A stretch of DNA of 64,000 nucleotides from Octopus vulgaris (taxonomy: Eukaryota). This document shows, piece after piece, positions 14,390 to 42,383 of the stretch. The translations under genes were made by a program, and so were the position numbers. Where the stretch lies: positions 13,764,001-13,828,000 of the forward strand of contig OX597818.1 in NCBI GenBank assembly GCA_951406725.2, in the 5' to 3' direction. Below the pieces are notes generated by a model. That model was not told the DNA's origin. It did not search any database and saw nothing but the letters and a program-made list of their open reading frames with translations. Within the stretch, counting starts at the first letter, position 1. Each line of letters opens with the position of its first letter.

Positions 14390-16379
14390 GGGTTGAGGAG
14401 GAAATATATAGAGATCTAATATCAATTGCGTGTCTGAATTAAATTTTATTGTGATAAATCTTTTACCAACTCCCGATGAGAATTTGAAATATCACTATTT
14501 CACCGTAAAAATATATATCAATGCATAAACTCTAAAACACTGACATTGATGATTGGATCAGTAAATAAAAAAAAAAGCATTAGAACCATAAATTATTTAG
14601 TATTTTTTATGTATATTTTAGATTGCTTAAAACGAACTTGTATGTTTTTGTTGACGAGGATCATTTCAAGTTCCATATACTTATAAATTTGTGAGCATAA
14701 ATCGAATAAATTGACGATGTTGTCATGGCGGCGTTAATCAAGCATTTAAGGAAGTGTCGAATATATTAAGTCTATAATGAACTAAAATATGAATGCGGGC
14801 ATAAAGTAATTCAGCTATGCGGAACATATTTTCAGGACATATTTTATTCTTTAAAGAAACCATATCAATGCATATCTTATGAAAAGCATATAGTAGTACT
14901 GTTCTACTAGATTGATAGAGGATACGTCACTCTGGAAAAGAACTAGAGGAGGATTTACAAGTGGAAAACCTACTATTTTGATACTCCACCACTGCTCATT
15001 CTCTCTGCATATACATTCATATACATACTCACACATACGCACACCCACTTACACACACATCTATATTTACACATACGTAGATAGATGAACAGAAAGATAT
15101 GTATACCAACACACACATATATATATATATATACATACATACATATGCACACGCATACACTCACACACTCACACACTCACACATTCACACACACTCACAG
15201 ATACACATGTGTAACTAAGACATCATAAAATGAGTGAAGAATTATGCATCTTCCTAACTTGTTTATTACAGTATTAAATTATATTCCGAGTAAAGGAAAT
15301 GAATTATATTAGCTTGAATGGGTTTATCTCGTTTTTAAATATAACACAAATTATGATATTAAATGGACAATAATTGGCAGAGCTTCACCGTATACTTTTG
15401 TAAATTTGGAGTGTAATTTATGCTTGGGAGAAATATTCCATATCTTTAGCTCTAATTACAGTTTAATTTGCCGAAACGAAATCGCTCTGAAATTTCCGCA
15501 TTCTTTTTGAAATGTAGTTAAGCACTTTCCACACAAGTACTTTTCAGTAGGATATCACTTAAGTAGATGTGCATATAAGTTAACCTAGCCAAATATTCGA
15601 TGATATACACCAGTTTGTTTTTAACAATCTCACAAAGAAACTCATTCGTTTTCATTTTTGTTCTTTCCGCCGTATTTCCTCTTAATCTAGCTATTTATAT
15701 TATGTTGAAACAGTGTGTCTTCATAATGAGTGGTCAGTGAGTCGAATGAATCCTGAACTAGTTTATAGGCTTTTTTCTAATACTATGATCATAAAATAGT
15801 CTATTCCGTGAAAATTTCAAAGTATATTTTAAGTTTAAACGATACCAAAAATATTGCTATATTTTATTTCAAAACAACCTCTTTAATCGTGTACAACTAA
15901 GACTTTATGATTCCCTCACCTATTGTTGTATCCTCCGTCGTGCCACCACCACGATATTGTGACGGATGGTTTAGATACACTGTACCAGTGTAGTAACAGT
16001 AAATAAGGTAACCATGCAGCCGTAATAACAACATAACGATCCAACAGTCTCTTCACGAACCAACAATCTCTTTCGGTGCTGCCAACTCAAACAAGCCATG
16101 ACAGACTTCCATTGGTATTGCCTTTCGTTTTTCAGTATGTCTTGACCTTAATTGGTTTAGTTGTCTCTTATGTTCCCAATGATGTCCTTCAGTTACATAA
16201 ATAATGTTTCCTAATCTTTTAGTTACAAAACTATCCTCTTAGTCTTGATTACCATTGTTGTAAATTTTAAAATGAACTTTATCTCCTACTTCGAAATGTG
16301 CTGCCTCTTCTGTATTTCCTTTAAACATATTTTTTCTCGGCAATAATTAATCGAAGATCGATTTTATTTTTCGCGTGAA

Positions 16380-29204: not shown

Positions 29205-32015
29205 GAGATCATACAATCACTGGTACTGTAGTCGCCTTGAGATGCCCCATTTCTTCAATTTCTATTAGCAAGGCTTTATTTTTACTGACCTTGTCAAATT
29301 CTTTCGCCGCTCTATTGTGATCGCAAGGAATAGTCATGCCACTTAATAAACACACTTTTTGTCAGATGTGTTATATTAATATCCGGTTTATTAGCTTTTA
29401 TAGTTTTGTCGGTATAAACGGAGAAGTCCCAGAGAATCGACACATTTTCTCCCACAGTCACAGCTTCAGGATGGTGTTTATGCCTTTTGTCAGCAGTTTT
29501 GATTTTATAATGCCGACATATTGTTCACTGTAAATACTGGTCGATTCTGTCATGCCTTGCTTTATATTCTACAGGTGCTAAGACTCTACACACCAAGATT
29601 AGGTAGTCTAGAGTTTCAGTCCCATCGTTACAGAATTGGCATTTTGGGTCAGCTCCATTTTTGATCACATTGGCTTGGTAGTTCCGGTTTAATAAGCTTT
29701 GGTCTTGAGCAGCTAATATGAAACCTTCACTATCTGCTTTTAGCCCTGAGCTTCGTAATCATTGATGCGTGTGTTTCTGATCCTCATCAGCTTGTTTGCT
29801 ACGGGCCACATACTTACCATGCAGAGGTTTCTCTTCCCATCTGCTAGCTAATTTTTCATGTGCTTTTGTCTTTGCAATTAATTTTATTTTCTTTGCAGCA
29901 GCGGTTGGAGCATTTCCTTCAACCTGATCAGTCTGGTAGGTATCTAAGAGATCAGAAGCGAATGTTTTGCTCTATTTCAGAATAGAGTGAAGTTTTACGG
30001 TCTTTCATGCAATCGTTGGTTGTTTTAAGGTATTTGGCCAGTCTGATTGTGGTGGTTTTGTACGTAAGTTCAAGCTGGACCAAGCCTCGACTGCCCTGAG
30101 CACTGGAAATGTAAATACGATCCACGTCTGCCTTACGATGCGATGGTGCATAAAAAACAACTGGGACTGCTAAGGAATTTATGGCTAACAACTTATTATA
30201 TGCATTCAGCTCAGATTTCAGGACTGCACGAACTATTCCTAACCTTCTCTTTCATGCTTGCATACGGGATACCAGAGCCTTCATTTATTCCTAGGTATTT
30301 ATAAGTTTCTTCCTGCTCAAGTTCCTTTATAACTGTTTCGACATTTAATTCGGTTGAACTTGACTTTACCAACTTACCTTTCTTAAAGTGGCTTTGGCAC
30401 ACTTTTCAAGGCCAAACTCCATCCCAATATCATCACTGAATCCTTTCACAGTATGTAGTATTCCTTCAAGCTCTTCATCATCTTTGCCATATAGTGTTAA
30501 GTCATCCATATAAAATAGATGGCTTATTTTCCTGTTGTCAGTTTATGTAGTCAAAGTATGTTCTATTCAGTTTACTTGAGAGTGGTATTAGTGCTCTGCA
30601 GAAAATTAGTGGCGAAAGTGAGTCACCTTGGAAAATTCCGCAGTTTATGCTAAAATTGTTTGAGCGCAATACTCAATTAGAATGATATAACGGGTGCTTC
30701 GTGTTCCGTAGTGACATATTATACTTTAAAAAATCTGAAATCAAAGTCGAAATTTTGAAAATGTCCAGCGATTTCAGAATCCACGAATGTAGTATGCTGT
30801 CAATGGCCTTTTTATAATCAATCCATGAAGAACTGAGATTTCTGCGCTTGTTATGGCAGTTCTCAAGGATCATGTGATTAATTAGGTGCTGATCTTTGCA
30901 TCCGTATGAGCCTCGTCTGCATCCTTTTTGTTCAGTGGGAAAGAGGTTATTCTCTTCCATAAACGTATATGTTTTCTCCACTAGAAAAGATGTAAAAATC
31001 TTATCGACAAACATGTTATAGGCCGGTGGTTTTTGGGGTCTTTGGTTTCGTTTTTTTTTGGGGGGTGGGGGGAAGTAAGTACTACCATTTGCCATCCAAT
31101 GGGGAGTTTTTTCCGGGTCTTTCATAATAGTATTAAATAGTATTACTAACATTTTGTGTGCGGACGAGAATAAAAAATTTGGTACTGTATCAATACCAGG
31201 GGATTTCTACTTATGGGCATTCGTTAGTGCCCTCCCTAGGTTGGCGATTGAGATGTCTTCCCATACCTGTTCTTGTAGATTTTTTAGGCATCTTGGGTGC
31301 GTTTGATCCAGTCTGCATTTTCATTGTATGGTTTCTCATCACTCCAGATCCCCATCCAAAATTTTTCAACTTCTTCCATTAGCGGTGGATCTTCAATGGT
31401 TATTTTTTCTCTCCCTATTTCCCTGTAAAATGATTTGGCATTGGATTTGAACATTTTATTTGGCTTGTAGTATTTGATTCTTTTCTCAAATCTGCTATTC
31501 TCTGAGCTTTTGCGTGAATTTTTTTAAGTGTTTCTTTCGCTGACGTTAGTTCTTCTCTTGTTGAGAGTCCATATTTTCTCACAATCTTCCTGCCTTTTCT
31601 TGATATTATACCATTTCCAGAGATTAGCTCAGTTAATATTGATATTATCTCCCTTCACAATAATTCAATCTCAGTTTCAATTCTACTGCTCCAGTTTGAT
31701 TTTCATTTCGAATTTGGTATTTTTGGCTTTTTGGGGTGTTAAACAGCGTCTTTCGATTACCTTAGAAACAGAGTAAATAATTTCATTTAAATTATTAAGA
31801 TCTTGTTTTAGTTGTTGCATGATTTCTTGTGTAACGCAGGTGCCAATTTTAATTTGTGTTTTATGTTGCTGTGTAGCAGAGAGTTTATGGAGTGGTTCCG
31901 TATCATTCATATTTGTATGTCCTACAACTACAAGCTCATTCAGAACTTCCTGCTTCATTTCAATGATAGATTTTATGTGGTCTTTAAATTCTGTTTCGAC
32001 ATCATTTTCCTGATT
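29205..32015 (-). pseudogene. Old R4/Dong-like non-LTR retrotransposon (RT, REL endonuclease remnant)
   Basis: EQKGCRRGSYGCKDQHLIN, WIDYKKAIDS..HSWI, GIFQGDSLSP, LFYMDDL, YKYLGI, AINSLAVPVV, RGLVQLE; many disablements. Confidence 0.88.
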
Positions 32016-32016
32016 G

Positions 32017-32121
<105 letters not shown>

Positions 32122-32125
32122 TATT

Positions 32126-33858
32126 CAGTAGTTTTATTTTTATAGCGTGCTTTCACTTCACTACCGAGCACAGCTCTGTGTGCCTTGGGTATGTTCTGTG
32201 ATTTGTTGTGATGCTCTGATGGTTATTGTATGGAAAGTGTTCTGCGTAGGATGTGTGCAGTGCCTAGTAGTGGAATTTTCTGTATGTTATATGTGTTTGT
32301 AAGTCCTAGTATTTTTGTTATGTATTTGTCTGAATATTTTTTTATCATGCCTAATGCACCTACTATGATAGGAATTGTTTCTGTTTTCAGATTCCACATT
32401 CTAGTTACCTCTATTTCCAGGTCTTTGTATTTTGAGAGTTTCTCCATTTCTTTTAGAGACACGTTGTCATCAGCCGGTATTGATATATCAATTAGAAAGC
32501 ATTTTTTTTCTTCATGATCTCTGACAACTATATCTGGTCTGTTGGCCTTAATTTCTCTATCTGTGTGTATCGGCGTATCCCAGAGTATGGTTGCTTTCTC
32601 GTTTTCTGTGACCTTTTCTGGTGTGTGCCTATACCATCTTTTTTCTGTTGTTATTCCATAATGTTGGCATAGCTTCCAATGTATGTAGGTTCCAACTCTG
32701 TCATGCCTGTGAATATATTCCTTCTTAGCCAAGACTGGGCAGCCAGAGATAATATGATTTATTGTTTCTTGTCCATCTCCACATATTCTGCAGTTACTTG
32801 TAATATTTCTTTTCATTACATGTTTTTGGTAATTTCTGGTGGGGAGGCTTTGGTGTTGTGCTGCAATTAAAAATCCCTCTGTTTCTGCTTTGAGTCCTGA
32901 GCTTCTCAACCATTGCTGTCTATTACTTTTGCGTTTAGTTTAGTGCAGTATTTACAATGAAGGGGCTTTTTTTGCCATCGTTTTATCATGGTTCGTTGCT
33001 GTTCTATTTTTAGTTTGGATTTCATTTGTTTTATAGCTTTTGTTGTTTCTTCATCTTCTTCTTCTTCTTCATGTTCATTAGGTGGTATGATTTCTTGTTT
33101 GTATTTGTCAGCTTCCTTAAATACTGAGAACAGTTTTTTGTTTTGCTCGTGTTTTGCCGCTATCTGGATCAGTTTTCCTTCCTTCTGAAGTAGATATTTT
33201 GCAGTCCTATGGTGGTTATTTTATAGTAGTTTTCCAGCTGTATAAGGCCTCTACCACCTTCTATACGTTGTATATATAGTCTTTCTATGTCAGATTTTGG
33301 GTGATGCATCCTAGATCCTGTCATTATTTTTCTTGTTTTCCTATCTATTTTGGTCAGTTCATTTCGTGTCCAGTTAAGGATATTGTAGCTGTAACTTATA
33401 ACTGGGACAGCTAAAGTGTTGATACCTATTATCTTGTTTTTAGCATTGAGCTCTGTGTTTAGTATTGATCTAACTCGTCTATAATATTCTTTTTTTATTT
33501 TCTCTTTCATTTGTGTGTGTTGTGTCTTATCCAGTTCATGGATTCCTAAGTATTTGTAAGTTTGGCTTTGGTCTAATTCTTTTATTTCATTGGTTTTTAT
33601 CTAGTGTGATGTTGTTACTCTTAACTAGTTTTCCTCTTTTCAGGGTTACTTTGTCGCATTTTTCTAATCCAATTTTCATATCTATTTCTTTGGTAAATCC
33701 ATGAACAGTCTTTAATAGTGTTTCCAGCTGTTTGTCATTTGCAGCGTATAGTTTTAGGTCATCCATATATAAAAGGTGGCTGATCGTTTTGCCGTAACAT
33801 TTATATCCGCATCCAGTTCTATTTAGCATATCAGATAAAGGTGACAGTGCCAAGCACT
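32126..33858 (-). mobile_element. Younger 5'-truncated R4/Dong-like LINE with restriction-enzyme-like endonuclease
   Basis: HLLYMDDLKLY, INTLAVPVISYS, GGRGL; CCHC finger CRICG...ETINHIISGC; RHD; NRPDIVVRD...LIDISIP...EKLSKYKDL (ORF 32223-32909). Flanked by (TTA)n tracts at 32018-32125 and ~33870-33930. Confidence 0.92.
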
Positions 33859-34687: not shown

Positions 34688-35091
34688 CGCAGGAGTGCCT
34701 TAACCTCAGGAATGAACGCAGTGTGGTAAGTAGCTTGCTTACGAACCACATGGTTCTGGATTCAGTCCCACTGCGTGGCATCTTGAGCAAGTGTCTTCTG
34801 CTATAGCCCCGGGTCGACCAATGCCTTGTGAGTGGATTTGGTAGACGGAATCTGAAAGAAGCTTGTGTGTGTATATGTTTGTGTGTCTGTGTTTGTCCCC
34901 CTAGCATTGCTTGACAACCGATGCTGGTGTGTTTATGTCCCCGTCACTTAGCGGTTCGGCAAAAGAGACCGATAGAATAAGTACTGGGCTTACAAAGAAT
35001 AAGTCCCGGGGTCGATTTGCTCGACTAAAGGCGGTGTTCCAGCATGGCCGCAGTCAAATGACTGAAACAAATAAAAGAGAGAAAAAGAGAA

Positions 35092-35092
<1 letters not shown>
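34686..35092 (+). mobile_element. SINE family A
   Basis: Full head-core-tail match to the other copies, with a foreign 24-mer near the A box. Confidence 0.85.
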
Positions 35093-35150
<58 letters not shown>

Positions 35151-35197
35151 GTGAATTGAAGAAATGGAGCTGAACGAAGATTGAACAGAAATCGTTT

Positions 35198-35290
35198 TAT
35201 TTCATTCTACACGTGTTTCGAAAGGCACAATTTACCAAAATCCGATTGAATAATGAGACCATATTGTGTCTTTCTCTTCAGGAAGAAATA
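35198..35290 (-). ncRNA. Minimal type-I hammerhead ribozyme in the 3' pLTR
   Basis: Sense sequence: stem I UAUUUC-UUC, core CUGAAGA, stem II GAAAGACACAAU...AUUGUGCCUUUC (11/12 pairs), GAAA, short stem III with palindromic loop C-ACGU-G, cleavage triplet GUA, stem I' GAA-U-GAAAUA. Confidence 0.88.
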
Positions 35291-35534
35291 GGAAATCCGT
35301 TGGAAAAAACAAAAACAGAACAGAGGCGGAGCAAAACAAATCGAACTAGGCTCCTAAGAGCCCATGGCAAAACTGTTTATCAGTGTATGTTGAGAACCGG
35401 TGGTTGAAGATTTTAACGGGTCAGGCAGCGGTCATTCCTGTGGGTGAGGGTGTGTATGTGTTCTTTGTGACCGAGAATAAAGTTCTGACTATTTAAAGAA
35501 TATTGGATGTATTATAAGGGGCGAGAAAAAATCT

Positions 35535-35569
35535 ACTTAGAGACATGTGTGTGTTTACTGTTCTATATA
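35535..35569 (-). promoter_or_regulatory. Putative Pol II core promoter of the PLE (TATA box plus Inr-like TAAGT)
   Basis: Minus-strand TATATAG at 35569-35563 lies 30 nt upstream of 35539, exactly where homology to the inverted 5' arm begins (TAAGTAG). Confidence 0.5.
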
Positions 35570-35953
35570 TGTGTGCTGGCGCAGGTTGGCAAGAAGCGCT
35601 ATTTTCTGGTCACTGCTGAGAACTCCGTCAAGGGGTAGAAAACATTTTTTGTGTACGCGTGTGCGTTTGATCGCTCGGCTGTCAGTTGTTAAACAGCTCT
35701 ACACAATGGCCACTGCAGTAAAAACCGTCGGGCGGCAGAAAAATATTTTATGTTTTATGTGTGCGTGTGTTCGTCTAATCATGCCTTGTCAAAGAAACCC
35801 CCCGTCGTCAAAAACAAAGCCCCATTCATCTCACAGGAGTAATTCCCCTTGCAGTGGTTAATCGTAATTATCTTAAAGGCTTTTTCAGAATTTATTACCA
35901 AGGGCTATTTTCATATAATTAGTGTAACCGGGTGCAGGTATTATTTATAAGCG

Positions 35954-38668
35954 TTATTTATAAGCCAGATAAGTGTAACGCCGCCAATGGGGGCATCGAA
36001 AAGCCGACTGTAAAAGTCCGTTTACCATCCGGTCTCTGGCGAACAATATATGGAAGAGTTCGGAGACACAAAGGTTGCACTTCCTTCTGCCCCTATCAAA
36101 TGGGAGGGCCACCGACAAAATTGACCATTCCAGCCTGTAGCTTGAGTTCGTATTCTTCAATCGCCATATTAGCTTGCTGAGTCCCGTGGTCTGGTGTTTA
36201 TTCATGTCTCGAAAAGTTGCGTAATGATTGGAGATTCGCAAAGCCAATCTTGACGATGAGGCCCCTACATAAGCGTAGACATCTGAGTCCGTGTAAACCT
36301 TGCATTGGTAGACGGCGTTTCTGATCTTGGAGTTCGCCGACGTGAATCTAATTCTGCTAGGATTAGTTTCTGAAATTAGAACTGCGTTAGTGTCACTATA
36401 TTTGTTACGAGAACTGCAGCCGCTTACTACTTTATTTTCCACTACGTCACTATTAACTAACGGAATAACCCCTGATTCTCCACTATCTATCAGAGTGCTG
36501 TCATTGCTAGTGCCCGTGGTGCTGCTATTGCCGGAAACGATGCTGGGGTTGCTATTGGGACTCTCTACCCTAACGAGCCGAGCTGCGCTCACCTCACTAC
36601 TGCCATTGTTACCGTCAACTACAACACCCCTATTTATAACTATACCCCTAGTATATAATCCCTGGCTGGAGCTGAGATTATGAGTCACTGTACTGGCTCT
36701 CATTTCATTATTACTACTATAATTATTCCTACTGAGCATTAAACCGGGAGCGGAAGAAGCTGTGCCTCCGGACAAAGGTGATAGGGTCTTAGTAAGCAGC
36801 CTATTATTATGGGAGGCGATTATCTGGGCGAGGTTTTTAGTGTTGGAGAAAGCTATCCTAACTTTATGCGAGTTAACCGTGGAGTAATATTTGGAATTTC
36901 TGGGGAAGTTATTGGCGATGGCTTGTCGAAACATGAGGGGGAGGTTAGTTCTAATCTGCTTACCAAAGGGAATTACAAACCATATATGCTTATTCCTATC
37001 TATGTGATGGGTCGGGACGCCAGCTCTCGCATTCGGGTGGGTGATTCTCGGATGAATAACGGGTTTTGGGTTAGTGTGAGATCTCCCGGACCGATAATTA
37101 TCCTTGTTCGCTAAATTAAATGCGGGAGCGACTGCCCCAGCACCCGCCGCGCTCCCGTCACTACTTAAATTGTTTATGTTATTATAGACGGCCCTATCCT
37201 GATGACCGAATGATGGCATCGGAAGGGCCGGATCAATATAAATTACCTTCTGCCTATAACCGGCCTTGGATAGTGCGGCGTTATAAAATTCCGCTTTCTG
37301 CATAAAAATATCGGCACTGGCGGACAAGCCAGACAATCTTAGAGAGATGTTTTTAACCAAATTGTTTGTTACGGTTTTGGCATGATTTGAGAAGACACTG
37401 ACATACTTCAAATTAGTGGAAGGCTTATGGTAAGGGCAGTATGAGTCGCTATTAAGGTTAAGTGTAACGTCTAGGAAATTAGCCTTGGTGAGTTCATTAT
37501 CAAAAACTATACTCATGCCCATTCTATTAAAAAACCTAGCTAACCTGCTCTTAGTTTTCTGCACTATTCTGTTCGTGGTGTTTTGCAGGTAAAACAGACA
37601 ATCGTCACGATACAGGCCGCCCGCGATCTCCGGGAATTGGTCGGACAATTCGTAGAGAATATATATTCCGACCAAATCGGCTATCTGCGCACTATCCGAA
37701 CTACCCATAGGCACATCAAATTCATTGGGAGTATCTTTACGGATCCACAACTTATTATCAAACTTAATAAACGATTTCCTGGCAACTAAAATCATATCTA
37801 TCTCTTCTCTGGTGAGGCCAGCCTTGTTGTGAGCATGCCAAAGGGCCTTATTTAGCACACTAGGGTTAATCGAGGGGTAGAAGCTAGCGATATCAAACTG
37901 AATGAACCTAGTACGGTTCTTATTGGGGATGGAAGAGAACCACTTCACTACCTGCGAGGAGTTGGCCCAGAGGCTGAGCTTCAGCTTGTTTACTAAACTA
38001 GGGATATATTTATCTAAAATGTACTTACTGATTATCCCGATATCAGAGCTAGCAGAGCATATGAGTCTTAGCGCTGGGTTGGTGTGGAAGTTCGGTTTAT
38101 GGTCCTTCACAATAAATCTGGGTTGCTTAGGGCTAAGCGGCTGCGTTCTCATTTGAATTCCGTGTTTAAACATTATTTCCTTAATTTCCAAGTTTACCTT
38201 CCTCAGGGTACTCCAATTGGTTTTTCTATAATTTTTCTTGATCTCTTTACCGAGTAAATCTAGGTACTGCTTAATGGGTAGTTTGTATGTGTTCCTGGTC
38301 TTGTCGGACTGGACCAGGACTCCGTCCGTTCTATTAATGTCCTTGGTAATTTTATCTAGGTATCTGAGGTGGGCATTTCTCCTGGGTGACTTCCTGAACT
38401 TAATCTTTCTAACTATGTCCCACAAGTCGTCCTCAAACTTCTTCAGTCTTGGGTTAGGTGGCGGCGTATCCAATGTTTTAAAAAACCGGCCGTATTCGGA
38501 CGATGCTGTTGTCCGGTTCGATTTTAGATATTCGTTCTCGTGGAAGAAAACGAGCCATCTTATCCGGTTTATGAATGCGTTGGTTTTACAAACCAACTCC
38601 TTAAGGAAGGCGTCCTTCGGTGGTATAGGAATATCCTTAAGGGACGCATCAATCTCGAACAACTCCAT
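35954..38668 (-). CDS. Intact 904-aa reverse transcriptase + C-terminal GIY-YIG endonuclease of a Naiad-type Penelope-like element
   Basis: Uninterrupted ORF. N-terminal SLKDIPIP...FINRIRW; SDKTRNTY (DKT rather than DKG); RT motifs FIQFDIASFYPSI, DVPMGSSDSAQIADLVG, GLYRDD, NFLDVTLNL, YHKP...YVSVFSNH; HIWFVIPF; GIY-YIG as AVY...YVG...LRISNH...KCNLCVSE...N...CPH. Confidence 0.93.
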   Translation of the reverse strand: MELFEIDASLKDIPIPPKDAFLKELVCKTNAFINRIRWLVFFHENEYLKSNRTTASSEYGRFFKTLDTPPPNPRLKKFEDDLWDIVRKIKFRKSPRRNAHLRYLDKITKDINRTDGVLVQSDKTRNTYKLPIKQYLDLLGKEIKKNYRKTNWSTLRKVNLEIKEIMFKHGIQMRTQPLSPKQPRFIVKDHKPNFHTNPALRLICSASSDIGIISKYILDKYIPSLVNKLKLSLWANSSQVVKWFSSIPNKNRTRFIQFDIASFYPSINPSVLNKALWHAHNKAGLTREEIDMILVARKSFIKFDNKLWIRKDTPNEFDVPMGSSDSAQIADLVGIYILYELSDQFPEIAGGLYRDDCLFYLQNTTNRIVQKTKSRLARFFNRMGMSIVFDNELTKANFLDVTLNLNSDSYCPYHKPSTNLKYVSVFSNHAKTVTNNLVKNISLRLSGLSASADIFMQKAEFYNAALSKAGYRQKVIYIDPALPMPSFGHQDRAVYNNINNLSSDGSAAGAGAVAPAFNLANKDNYRSGRSHTNPKPVIHPRITHPNARAGVPTHHIDRNKHIWFVIPFGKQIRTNLPLMFRQAIANNFPRNSKYYSTVNSHKVRIAFSNTKNLAQIIASHNNRLLTKTLSPLSGGTASSAPGLMLSRNNYSSNNEMRASTVTHNLSSSQGLYTRGIVINRGVVVDGNNGSSEVSAARLVRVESPNSNPSIVSGNSSTTGTSNDSTLIDSGESGVIPLVNSDVVENKVVSGCSSRNKYSDTNAVLISETNPSRIRFTSANSKIRNAVYQCKVYTDSDVYAYVGASSSRLALRISNHYATFRDMNKHQTTGLSKLIWRLKNTNSSYRLEWSILSVALPFDRGRRKCNLCVSELFHILFARDRMVNGLLQSAFRCPHWRRYTYLAYK

Positions 38669-38717
38669 TATTGGTATCGGTTAAAGTAGCAGTTTCTTGA
38701 CGAAGCGGTATGTATTA

Positions 38718-39024
38718 TGTTTATCAGTGTATGTTGAGAACCGGTGGTTGAAGATTTTAACGGGTCAGGCAGCGGTCATTCCTGTGGGTGAGGGTGTGTA
38801 GGTGTCCTTTGTGACCGAGAATAAAGTTCTGACTATTTAAAGAATATTGGATGTATTATAAGTAGATTGTTTCTCGCCCCTTATAATACATCCAATATTC
38901 TTTAAATAGTCAGAACTTTATTCTCGGTCACAAAGGACACCTACACACCCTCACCCACAGGAATGACCGCTGCCTGACCCGTTAAAATCTTCAACCACCG
39001 GTTCTCAACATACACTGATAAACA
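38718..39024. repeat. Palindrome with 145-bp arms and 17-nt loop at the PLE 5' end
   Basis: 38718-38862 is the reverse complement of 38880-39024; no mismatch seen by eye. Confidence 0.92.
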
Positions 39025-39107
39025 GTTTTGCCATGGGCTCTTAGGAGCCTAGTTCGATTTGTTTTGCTCCGCCTCTGTTCTGTTTTTGTTTTTTCCAACG
39101 GATTTCC

Positions 39108-39200
39108 TATTTCTTCCTGAAGAGAAAGACACAATATGGTCTCATTATTCAATCGGATTTTGGTAAATTGTGCCTTTCGAAACACGTGTAGAATGAAATA
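39108..39200 (+). ncRNA. Minimal type-I hammerhead ribozyme in the inverted 5' pLTR (same sequence as the 3' copy)
   Basis: CTGAAGA 39117-39123; stem II 39124-39135/39167-39178; GAAA 39179-39182; CACGTG; GTA 39188-39190; GAATGAAATA pairs with TATTTCTTC. Confidence 0.88.
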
Positions 39201-39401
39201 AAACGATTTCTGTTCAATCTTCGTTCAGCTCCATTTCTTCAATTCACCAATAATATTAAAATTCAATTATCGCACCAACGCACGGTTGCAACACCATATG
39301 GTTGTACCTCCAACCGTGCTGTCTTCTGCTGTAATTTTTGCTACCAAGGTATCGGTTAAACTTTTGATTAATCTGCTACAAGATTATTCATCTTTCTATT
39401 T

Positions 39402-39440
<39 letters not shown>

Positions 39441-41250: not shown

Positions 41251-41983
41251 TTGTAGGTGGAAACGACTGTAAAGTCTTAATATACTATGTCCGCCAATAA
41301 TATGTCCCACTGATTATATCCATTTTGTTCCCTGTGGCACCTTGGACAAATGTTTTCTACTATAGCCTCGAGTCTACCAAAGCCTTTTGAGTGGATTTAG
41401 TGAACGGAAATTGAAAGACTCCCGTCGTGTATACACACACACGCACACACATAGAATATAATAAGTACTATGCTTACAAAGAATAAGTCCTGGGGTTGAT
41501 TTGTTCGGTGCTGCTCCAGCATCGCTGCAGTCAGTTGACTAAAACAGATAAGAGAATACATATTTATTGATATACATACATACACACACACATACACACA
41601 CATATATATAATTAAAAGCAATTGCTTATTTAAGAATACATGTATGCGTAAAAGCGTAAAAGGAGTTGCCACGCACCTCTATACTTTTAAGAACAAACAC
41701 AAATCTAATTCTACAGGACTGAGTATATTTATTTGAGATTTAAAGGAAATGAATACTATCGTAAATTGGAAATACTTGCTTCCGCACCTTTCTATCAAAT
41801 TAATATGAAAAAATATTTTGATGCTTAAATGAAAAGTTTTTTTAATTTTTTCTGCTAGAGACACTATTCTTAACCTCAAGAATGAACGCAGTCTCTTTTG
41901 TATTCATTAAAATAAATTTCTAATTACTAAATATGGATAAAATATTATATTGCTATTTTTATTTTTAATATTACTAACATATA

Positions 41984-42383
41984 GGCGCAGGAGTGACTGT
42001 GTGGTAAGTAGCTTGTTTACCAGCCATATGTTTCCGGGTTCAATCCCACTGCGTGGCACCTTGGGCAAGTGTCTTCTACTATAGCCTCGGGTCGACAAAA
42101 GCCCTGTGAGTTGATTTGGTAGACGGAAACTGAAAGAAGCCCGTCGTATATATGTATATATATGAGTGTGTGTGTGTGTGTCTGTGTTTGTCCCCCTAGC
42201 ATGGCTTGACAACGGATGCTGGTGTGTTTATGTCCCCGTTACTTTGCGGTTCGGCAAAAGAGACCGATAGAATAAGTACTGAGCTTACAAAAGAATAAGT
42301 CCCGGGATCGAGTTACTCGATTAAAGGTGGTGCTCCAGCATGGCCGCAGTCAAATGACTGAAACACGTAAAAGAGTAAAAGAA
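41984..42383 (+). mobile_element. SINE family A (a partial copy also lies at ~41333-41556)
   Basis: GGCGCAGGAGTG head, GGGTTCAATCCC B box, core and tail. Confidence 0.85.

Follow-up and report, generated by a model that had tools for sequence, protein, structure and literature searches.

A 64,000-nucleotide stretch of the Octopus vulgaris genome (GCA_951406725.2, contig OX597818.1, positions 13,764,001 to 13,828,000 of the forward strand; hereafter the window, to whose positions all coordinates refer) contains a Penelope-like retroelement (PLE) lodged in a (TA)n tract, and the locus raises the question of how such an element can reach that target when the protein motif proposed to direct the targeting is missing. 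Insertion into (TA)n by the Neptune, Naiad and Hydra clades of PLEs is attributed in PMC8557442, as a hypothesis, to a cysteine motif in the linker of the endonuclease (EN). We consider it likely that the element is a young (~1 Myr) copy of a multi-copy, Hydra-derived family in which the catalytic residues are kept, the CxCX5C linker motif is absent, and insertion into (TA)n probably still proceeds by target priming. The anatomy of the element, its motifs, the missing cysteines, the multiplicity of the family and the TA flanks at two loci are direct observations. What makes the element of value is the absence of the linker motif. In other respects it is ordinary, as Octopus commonly has young PLEs (PMC13282606).

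Motif-based assignment to the Hydra clade

A first-pass annotation of the window, made from the letters alone, had described an intact, possibly active Naiad-type PLE. Its account of a young, (TA)n-flanked PLE from a recently amplified family is borne out, as are the stop-free open reading frame (ORF) of 904 aa (minus strand, ATG 38668 to TAA 35954), the near-identity of the two long pseudo-long terminal repeat (pLTR) copies, and the two hammerhead ribozymes, which are the same type I motif present once in each long pLTR copy. The pLTR at 35142-35539 and its inverted counterpart at 38859-39256 differ by three mismatches in 398 bp (at 35457, 35462 and 35529). The clade assignment, by contrast, must be changed, since DKT together with a C-terminal CxxC...CxH, which had been taken to mark Naiads, are marks of the Hydra clade in PMC8557442. 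That source describes Naiads as having an N-terminal EN, DKA, a CxC motif and no canonical hammerhead, and Hydra elements as having DKT, RWK, a C-terminal EN with CxxC/CxH but no CCHH, hammerheads and insertion into (TA)n.

The protein encodes the reverse transcriptase (RT) catalytic motif YRDD at aa 353-356 and DKT at aa 122-124, followed at the C-terminus by a GIY-YIG EN whose residues Y787, Y800-G802, R811, H815, E870 and N883 are all present. The catalytic E870 and N883 are flanked by the pairs C864/C867 (CxxC, 864-867) and C892/H894 (CxH, 892-894), and there is no CCHH. These features of a single ORF, together with a sense-strand hammerhead and the (TA)n target, place the element with Hydra; we count the RW signature as the RWK of that clade, R37 and W38 being invariant in 21 sequences while the third residue, here L, varies among homologues. 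At the RT motif the element has GLYRDD, which the Hydra rows have too, and not YVDD, YIDD or FIDD. By eye, the consensus of our homologue alignment (RLINPAKS, FDVxMG, GLYRDD) agrees with the rows of named Hydra elements in PMC8557442 Fig. S7 and differs from the Penelope, Neptune and Nematis rows there, and the layout of the hammerhead is that of the Hydra rows in File S2 of the same source. The CCHH within the EN and the DKG that characterize Penelope/Poseidon, Neptune and Nematis are absent.

Against a Naiad identity stand the position of the EN after the RT (aa 783-904, versus YRDD at 353), DKT in place of DKA, and the canonical hammerhead; C789, moreover, is the sole cysteine between the two EN tyrosine motifs, a region in which the element departs from Naiads. 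Insertion into (TA)n does agree with Naiads, but it is common to Hydra and hence not diagnostic.

Structure prediction agrees with these domain calls. The five best structure matches in the PDB to the predicted fold of the whole protein are telomerases, and the predicted EN model superimposes on I-TevI with Z 9.4 and root mean square deviation 2.4 over 89 aligned residues. A Foldseek search with the EN model returned nothing at E 0.001, although GIY-YIG proteins ranked top. Pfam found no family on the 904-aa ORF, nor on five of six homologues, and a PDB sequence search with the ORF gave no match.

Two protein searches listed at least 109 and at least 150 homologues; the set of proteins analysed numbers 260, near-duplicates included. 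Of the named relatives among the matches listed, those from Octopus sinensis and O. bimaculoides, which are broken fragments, come closest, with Argonauta hians next. The nearest are XP_029650703.1 (P0116, O. sinensis, 'myb-like protein I') and XP_014779971.1 (P0163, O. bimaculoides), with clade support of 100/98 and 100/96. P0116 shares with the element both of the long inserts described below and the string WFVIPF; the two are 88% identical over the RT-thumb and 82% identical over the conserved linker, but the figures for the inserts are 53% and 37%. Both of these proteins are broken fragments whose match ends before the position of the linker motif. We regard P0116, P0163, P0192 and P0009 (Octopus and Argonauta, annotated as 'myb-like' or 'GATA zinc finger-like') as fragments of Hydra-type elements, which means that Octopus gene sets contain such fragments under false names.

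A named relative from the host genus, Hydra-1_Obim of O. bimaculoides (PMC8557442 supplement), shares the clade features, a C-terminal CPH and the (TA)n target, but is 2,507 bp long, keeps the linker cysteines as CSC..CP..C, and has a protein and hammerhead that by eye are unlike ours, pointing to a separate family. Compared with the Hydra clade as described in PMC8557442, our element agrees in its C-terminal GIY-YIG EN without CCHH, DKT, RW, CxxC/CxH around E and N, the type I hammerhead in the sense pLTR, and (TA)n. It differs in having no CxCX5C, RWL for RWK, a longer protein (904 aa, the median for homologues with an EN being 709), and a monomer of ~3.6-3.7 kb where Hydra elements are generally <3 kb (3,572 nt measured from the leader to the 3' end, or 3,725 nt once the tail is included). 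Because the linker CxCX5C is lacking, we file it, on its motifs, as a Hydra-derived variant and not as a canonical member of the clade.

Loss of the linker motif

The main departure from Hydra, passed over in the first-pass annotation, is the loss of the linker CxCX5C together with two long inserts predicted to be disordered. A linker motif of the form CxC..C..C occurs in every named Hydra row of PMC8557442 Fig. S7. An EN is present in 137 of our 260 homologous proteins, and 136 of these have all four linker cysteines (132 by pattern, 4 by eye), the remaining one having three; in a smaller set a strict pattern was passed by 83 of 85 EN-bearing homologues. The element has a single cysteine in aa 621-786. 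The motif was not found in the other two frames of the element, so that a compensated frameshift concealing it was rejected; selenocysteine read-through was rejected as well, there being no in-frame TGA and the stop being TAA. As read from the predicted protein, the motif is replaced by a spacer predicted to be disordered, while the catalytic residues in both the RT domain and the GIY-YIG domain are all kept.

The element nests in a clade of 14 rows (support 96/93) in which P0001, P0002, P0125, P0175 and P0176 keep the motif, and its loss is therefore derived. Nor is the loss private to this copy: contigs from four sequencing runs span the linker, where neither a joint nor an indel is listed; an independent contig, which covers 35962-36388 (aa 761-903), departs from the element at 3 of 427 letters; and the family-wide differences listed for aa 760-903 are a silent change at I773 and T760S. 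Two further protein searches made with the linker/EN part returned no protein at threshold, and a metagenome scan gave 38 pattern matches with none confirmed. In the literature outside subscription papers, Repbase and Dfam, a search on Penelope, Octopus and the Hydra clade returned only PMC8557442, and one on zinc fingers and microsatellites returned one unrelated paper.

Copies, selection and age of the family

The stretch is contained in 20 of the 24 public sequencing runs listed, from 8 studies and under three organism labels; 19 runs contain at least half of its words, the maximum share being 0.62. Contigs of four runs were aligned, over 35146-38717 only, some 3,000 of them coming from runs X1 and X9. 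In each of X1, X9 and X14 the 3' end has the higher read depth, by 38- to 200-fold, the pattern of a 5'-truncating family. Exact-match contigs at the 5' end are 36 to 267 times as deep as joints taken, putatively, as single-locus, which as a rough guide puts long copies at tens to hundreds, depth being no copy number.

Variant counts are based on 40 of 340 variant rows, 22 of those 40 lying in the ORF. Shared ORF variants among those listed are silent in 8 of 13 cases, against 25% expected (p 0.005), and because of this excess, and because the RT-thumb is far better kept than the inserts, we conclude that the family is under selection. The letters private to this copy present another picture: nine of those listed occur in no, or almost no, aligned contig, and seven of them change a residue (2/9 silent), including S205, which is a proline in 188 of 196 homologues and in all aligned contigs. 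The contrast between shared and private silent fractions is not significant (Fisher p 0.10). The private changes are as neutral decay would give, although a gap between populations or errors in the assembly might also account for them, and this copy, while young, is probably decaying. The earlier suggestion that the element is intact and may still be active thus suits the family but less so this copy, with its seven private amino-acid changes; the family itself was likely active recently.

From the three pLTR mismatches (0.38% per copy) and a substitution rate of 0.0036 per Myr (PMC13282606), the insertion is dated to ~1 Myr (0.2-3). Absence of the exact haplotype from every run fits a polymorphic or lineage-specific insertion. 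The 3' region varies within the family, with a 55-nt skip at 35575-35631 in three runs and an 8-nt insertion at 35402, which suggests subfamilies.

Run X2 is guessed to be RNA; its longest contig has ORF deletions of 27 nt and 1 nt, and it was not used as evidence on expression. It does provide two further ends of the family. One copy ends at 35147 beside (TA)n in a different flank, and at a loose end at 35151 the 3' end of another copy continues into sequence like 39257-39405. Because a similar tail thus follows the 3' end of another copy, the 149-nt tail at our locus is considered part of the element.

Termini, hammerheads and a model of insertion

One interrupted (TA)n tract adjoins the element on both ends, and all three 3' ends continue into TA or AT; runs of (TA)6 or more make up 1.75% of the window. 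At the 5' end a third, partial direct pLTR copy (38718-38862) and the segment 38880-39024 of the inverted copy form the arms of a perfect 145-bp palindrome. At 38718/38717 this 5' pLTR is joined directly to the leader (ACA|TA), so that a stretch of at least 381 nt, which includes the hammerhead, is left out.

Stem I of the hammerhead has 9 of 9 pairs and a one-base bulge, stem II has 11 of 12 pairs, and stem III is the loop-less palindrome ACACGTGT. A descriptor scan of the window picked out exactly these two sites, and it had no match in any of 60 Markov-simulated sequences of 64 kb. Rfam gave no match at the gathering threshold, leaving the hammerheads undetected; its e-value matches were microRNA models on the palindrome, every one below its own cut-off. 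Unconstrained folding did not yield the hammerhead (z 0.12), as expected because stem III is loop-less. Hammerheads with a loop-less stem III are reported to cleave as dimers (PMC6765202). The two motifs lie on opposite strands, no single transcript therefore contains both, and activation would seem possible only by pairing between molecules.

The Poseidon element of Anolis carolinensis (PAc) was shown in PMC11167929 to nick AT-rich DNA on both strands, to begin reverse transcription at sites within the RNA, and to use mainly uncleaved RNA as its template. PAc resembles our element in these respects and in its variable tail, but belongs to the Penelope/Poseidon clade, has a tail of 30-40 nt against 149 nt here, and has a hammerhead that overlaps the ORF start. 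By analogy (PMC11167929), the EN would nick both strands of the AT-rich tract, and each 3' end would serve as primer for reverse transcription from a position within an uncleaved element RNA. Priming from the left would have given the full-length copy, starting 62 nt past the predicted hammerhead cut, and priming from the right a second complementary DNA (cDNA), starting 215 nt past the predicted cut and halting after 547 nt; templates are taken to have been uncleaved because both copies extend beyond that cut, the main one by 62 nt and the inverted one by 215 nt. The two cDNAs may then have been joined through the 4-nt TAAG/CTTA overlap at 38859-38862 (twin priming), giving the head-to-head palindrome. 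Alternatively, a single cDNA may have folded back on the same 4 nt and then jumped; copying of one arm from the other is slightly favoured because the palindrome arms are identical. For the 38718/38717 junction, a template jump at a 3-nt microhomology would be simplest, an intron with a weak donor being a possible alternative.

Under this model the linker motif would have no part in the preference for TA, which would derive from an AT preference of the EN core itself or from AT microhomology where copying starts. A stronger proposal is that we have here an autonomous octopus lineage of Hydra type, recently amplifying and polymorphic to this day, which, with a disordered tether of 150 residues in place of the linker motif, remains selective for (TA)n when it inserts and would thus be a natural knock-out demonstrating microsatellite targeting without that motif; we put this forward tentatively, leaning slightly against it. 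Were it true that a family without the motif is still amplifying and still enters (TA)n, the linker-targeting hypothesis could be tested by genome data alone, and a side-by-side assay with a motif-bearing relative would also test it.

The pLTR palindrome at 38718-39024, with a 17-nt spacer, would form a long hairpin in a read-through transcript, a possible source of small RNA. The 149-nt tail contains a hairpin with an AC-rich loop (39278-39322, plus strand) in a stretch that folds better than shuffles (z -3.2), a possible protein-binding site, and ends in a pyrimidine-rich run.

Alternative explanations

Several observations weigh against our interpretation. The EN is the most diverged seen, scoring 86 bits against a profile of 81 homologue domains in which the leave-one-out minimum is 109, and such a low score could mean weakened function. 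The TA association is drawn from two loci, this one and the one in X2, among the loose ends listed. The trees consist of unnamed homologues with no outgroup, and the clade rests on motifs and by-eye comparison. The best word share, 0.62, implies a difference of up to 1.5%, above the prediction from pLTR mismatches (P 0.002). Possible reasons for this excess are a gap between populations or species, homogenisation of the inverted repeats, and errors in the assembly. No RNA run is recorded among the runs containing the stretch. The palindrome at 38718-39024 is as given by the assembly letters, and the RT start sites described in PMC11167929 are not homologous to the cut DNA, contrary to the microhomology part of our model. 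As to novelty, O. vulgaris has 336 recently active Penelope-like insertions in 31 families (PMC13282606), and the 190 Penelope-like consensus sequences of the repeat library for that species may already include this family, unnamed.

The main rival is help in trans: the EN would have lost its targeting or activity with the linker motif, and placement in (TA)n would be due to another Hydra protein, or simply to fragile, common TA tracts. An EN score that is the lowest of 82, the small number, two, of TA-flanked loci seen, and three other Hydra-type remnants in the window, two with visible linker cysteines and conceivably able to act in trans, all suit this explanation and tell against ours. We nevertheless judge it unlikely, as eight EN residues are invariant in 59 sequences, the element included, at only 21-34% identity over the region, the EN is predicted to fold confidently, and the remnants seen are broken.

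Much less probable is that this is an ordinary, canonical Hydra copy, with damage or assembly error private to this locus accounting for the inserts and the lack of cysteines. The nine private letters, and the fact that no run contains more than 62% of the element's words, would be in keeping with it, but the four-run contigs across the linker, the independent contig and the occurrence of both inserts in P0116 of O. sinensis speak against it. Domestication of a Hydra element as a host gene is very improbable still, in spite of the long disordered inserts and the gene names that NCBI gives to relatives ('myb-like protein I', 'GATA zinc finger-like'), since the pLTRs are nearly identical, variant contigs number in the thousands and show a 5'-truncation gradient, and the private changes look neutral. 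That the element is a Naiad, as first proposed, is refuted by domain order as well as by DKT, the lack of CCHH and the canonical hammerhead, even though Naiad families are present in Octopus species and (TA)n flanks with a partial-tandem and inverted 5' copy are described for Naiads (PMC8557442), since such flanks and inverted copies are common to most PLE clades.

Feature map and neighbourhood

Coordinates of the target-primed Hydra-derived element that we propose are collected in Table 1.

Table 1. Parts of the element and of its target tract, in window positions
Feature	Position	Strand	Remarks
(TA)n target tract, left half	35094..35145		Adjoins 3' end of main copy; sequence
3' pLTR, main copy	35142..35539	-	Final element base ~35146; AT microhomology with target
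Type I hammerhead motif	35198..35290	-	Core 35281; predicted cut after 35208; palindromic loop-less stem III
Unique 3' untranslated region	35540..35953	-	Sequence
904-aa ORF	35954..38668	-	N-terminal domain (RW, DKT), telomerase-like RT (YRDD), linker, C-terminal GIY-YIG EN
GIY-YIG EN, aa 783-904	35957..36322	-	Hydra-type CxxC and CxH; without CCHH
Site of absent CxCX5C linker motif, aa 749-782	36323..36424	-	C751 alone present
Low-complexity insert 2, aa 628-748	36425..36787	-	S/N/G/T 50%; predicted disordered, predicted local distance difference test (pLDDT) <50 at 632-774
Low-complexity insert 1, aa 479-555, past RT thumb	37004..37234	-	Predicted disordered, pLDDT <50 at 488-559
Leader upstream of ATG, 49 nt	38669..38717	-	Sequence
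Partial direct 5' pLTR, 145 nt (= 35374-35518)	38718..38862	-	Without hammerhead; one arm of perfect palindrome
Inverted 5'-truncated copy	38859..39405	+	pLTR 38859-39256 and 149-nt tail 39257-39405; 4-nt overlap with direct copy
Hammerhead of inverted copy	39108..39200	+	Core 39117; predicted cut after 39190
(TA)n target tract, right half	39406..39435		Sequence

Elsewhere in the window, the claim that almost everything else is decayed holds with a slight overstatement, for a stop-free RT frame of 569 aa from a long interspersed nuclear element (LINE) lies at 50704-48995 (minus; RVT_1 E 8e-32), apparently 5'-truncated and young. A broken LINE with RT and zf-RVT fragments occupies 30673-33600 (minus). 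The Hydra-type remnants comprise a decayed element at 12078-10930 (minus), with stops and frameshifts, which by eye is Hydra-1_Obim-like and keeps the linker cysteines CSC..CP..C, and linker/EN remnants at 28470-28211 (minus) and 15337-15504 (plus). Copies of a dispersed repeat, which we take to be like a short interspersed nuclear element, are found at 34690-35093, 41330-41560 and 42000-42380, and the left TA tract ends one of them.

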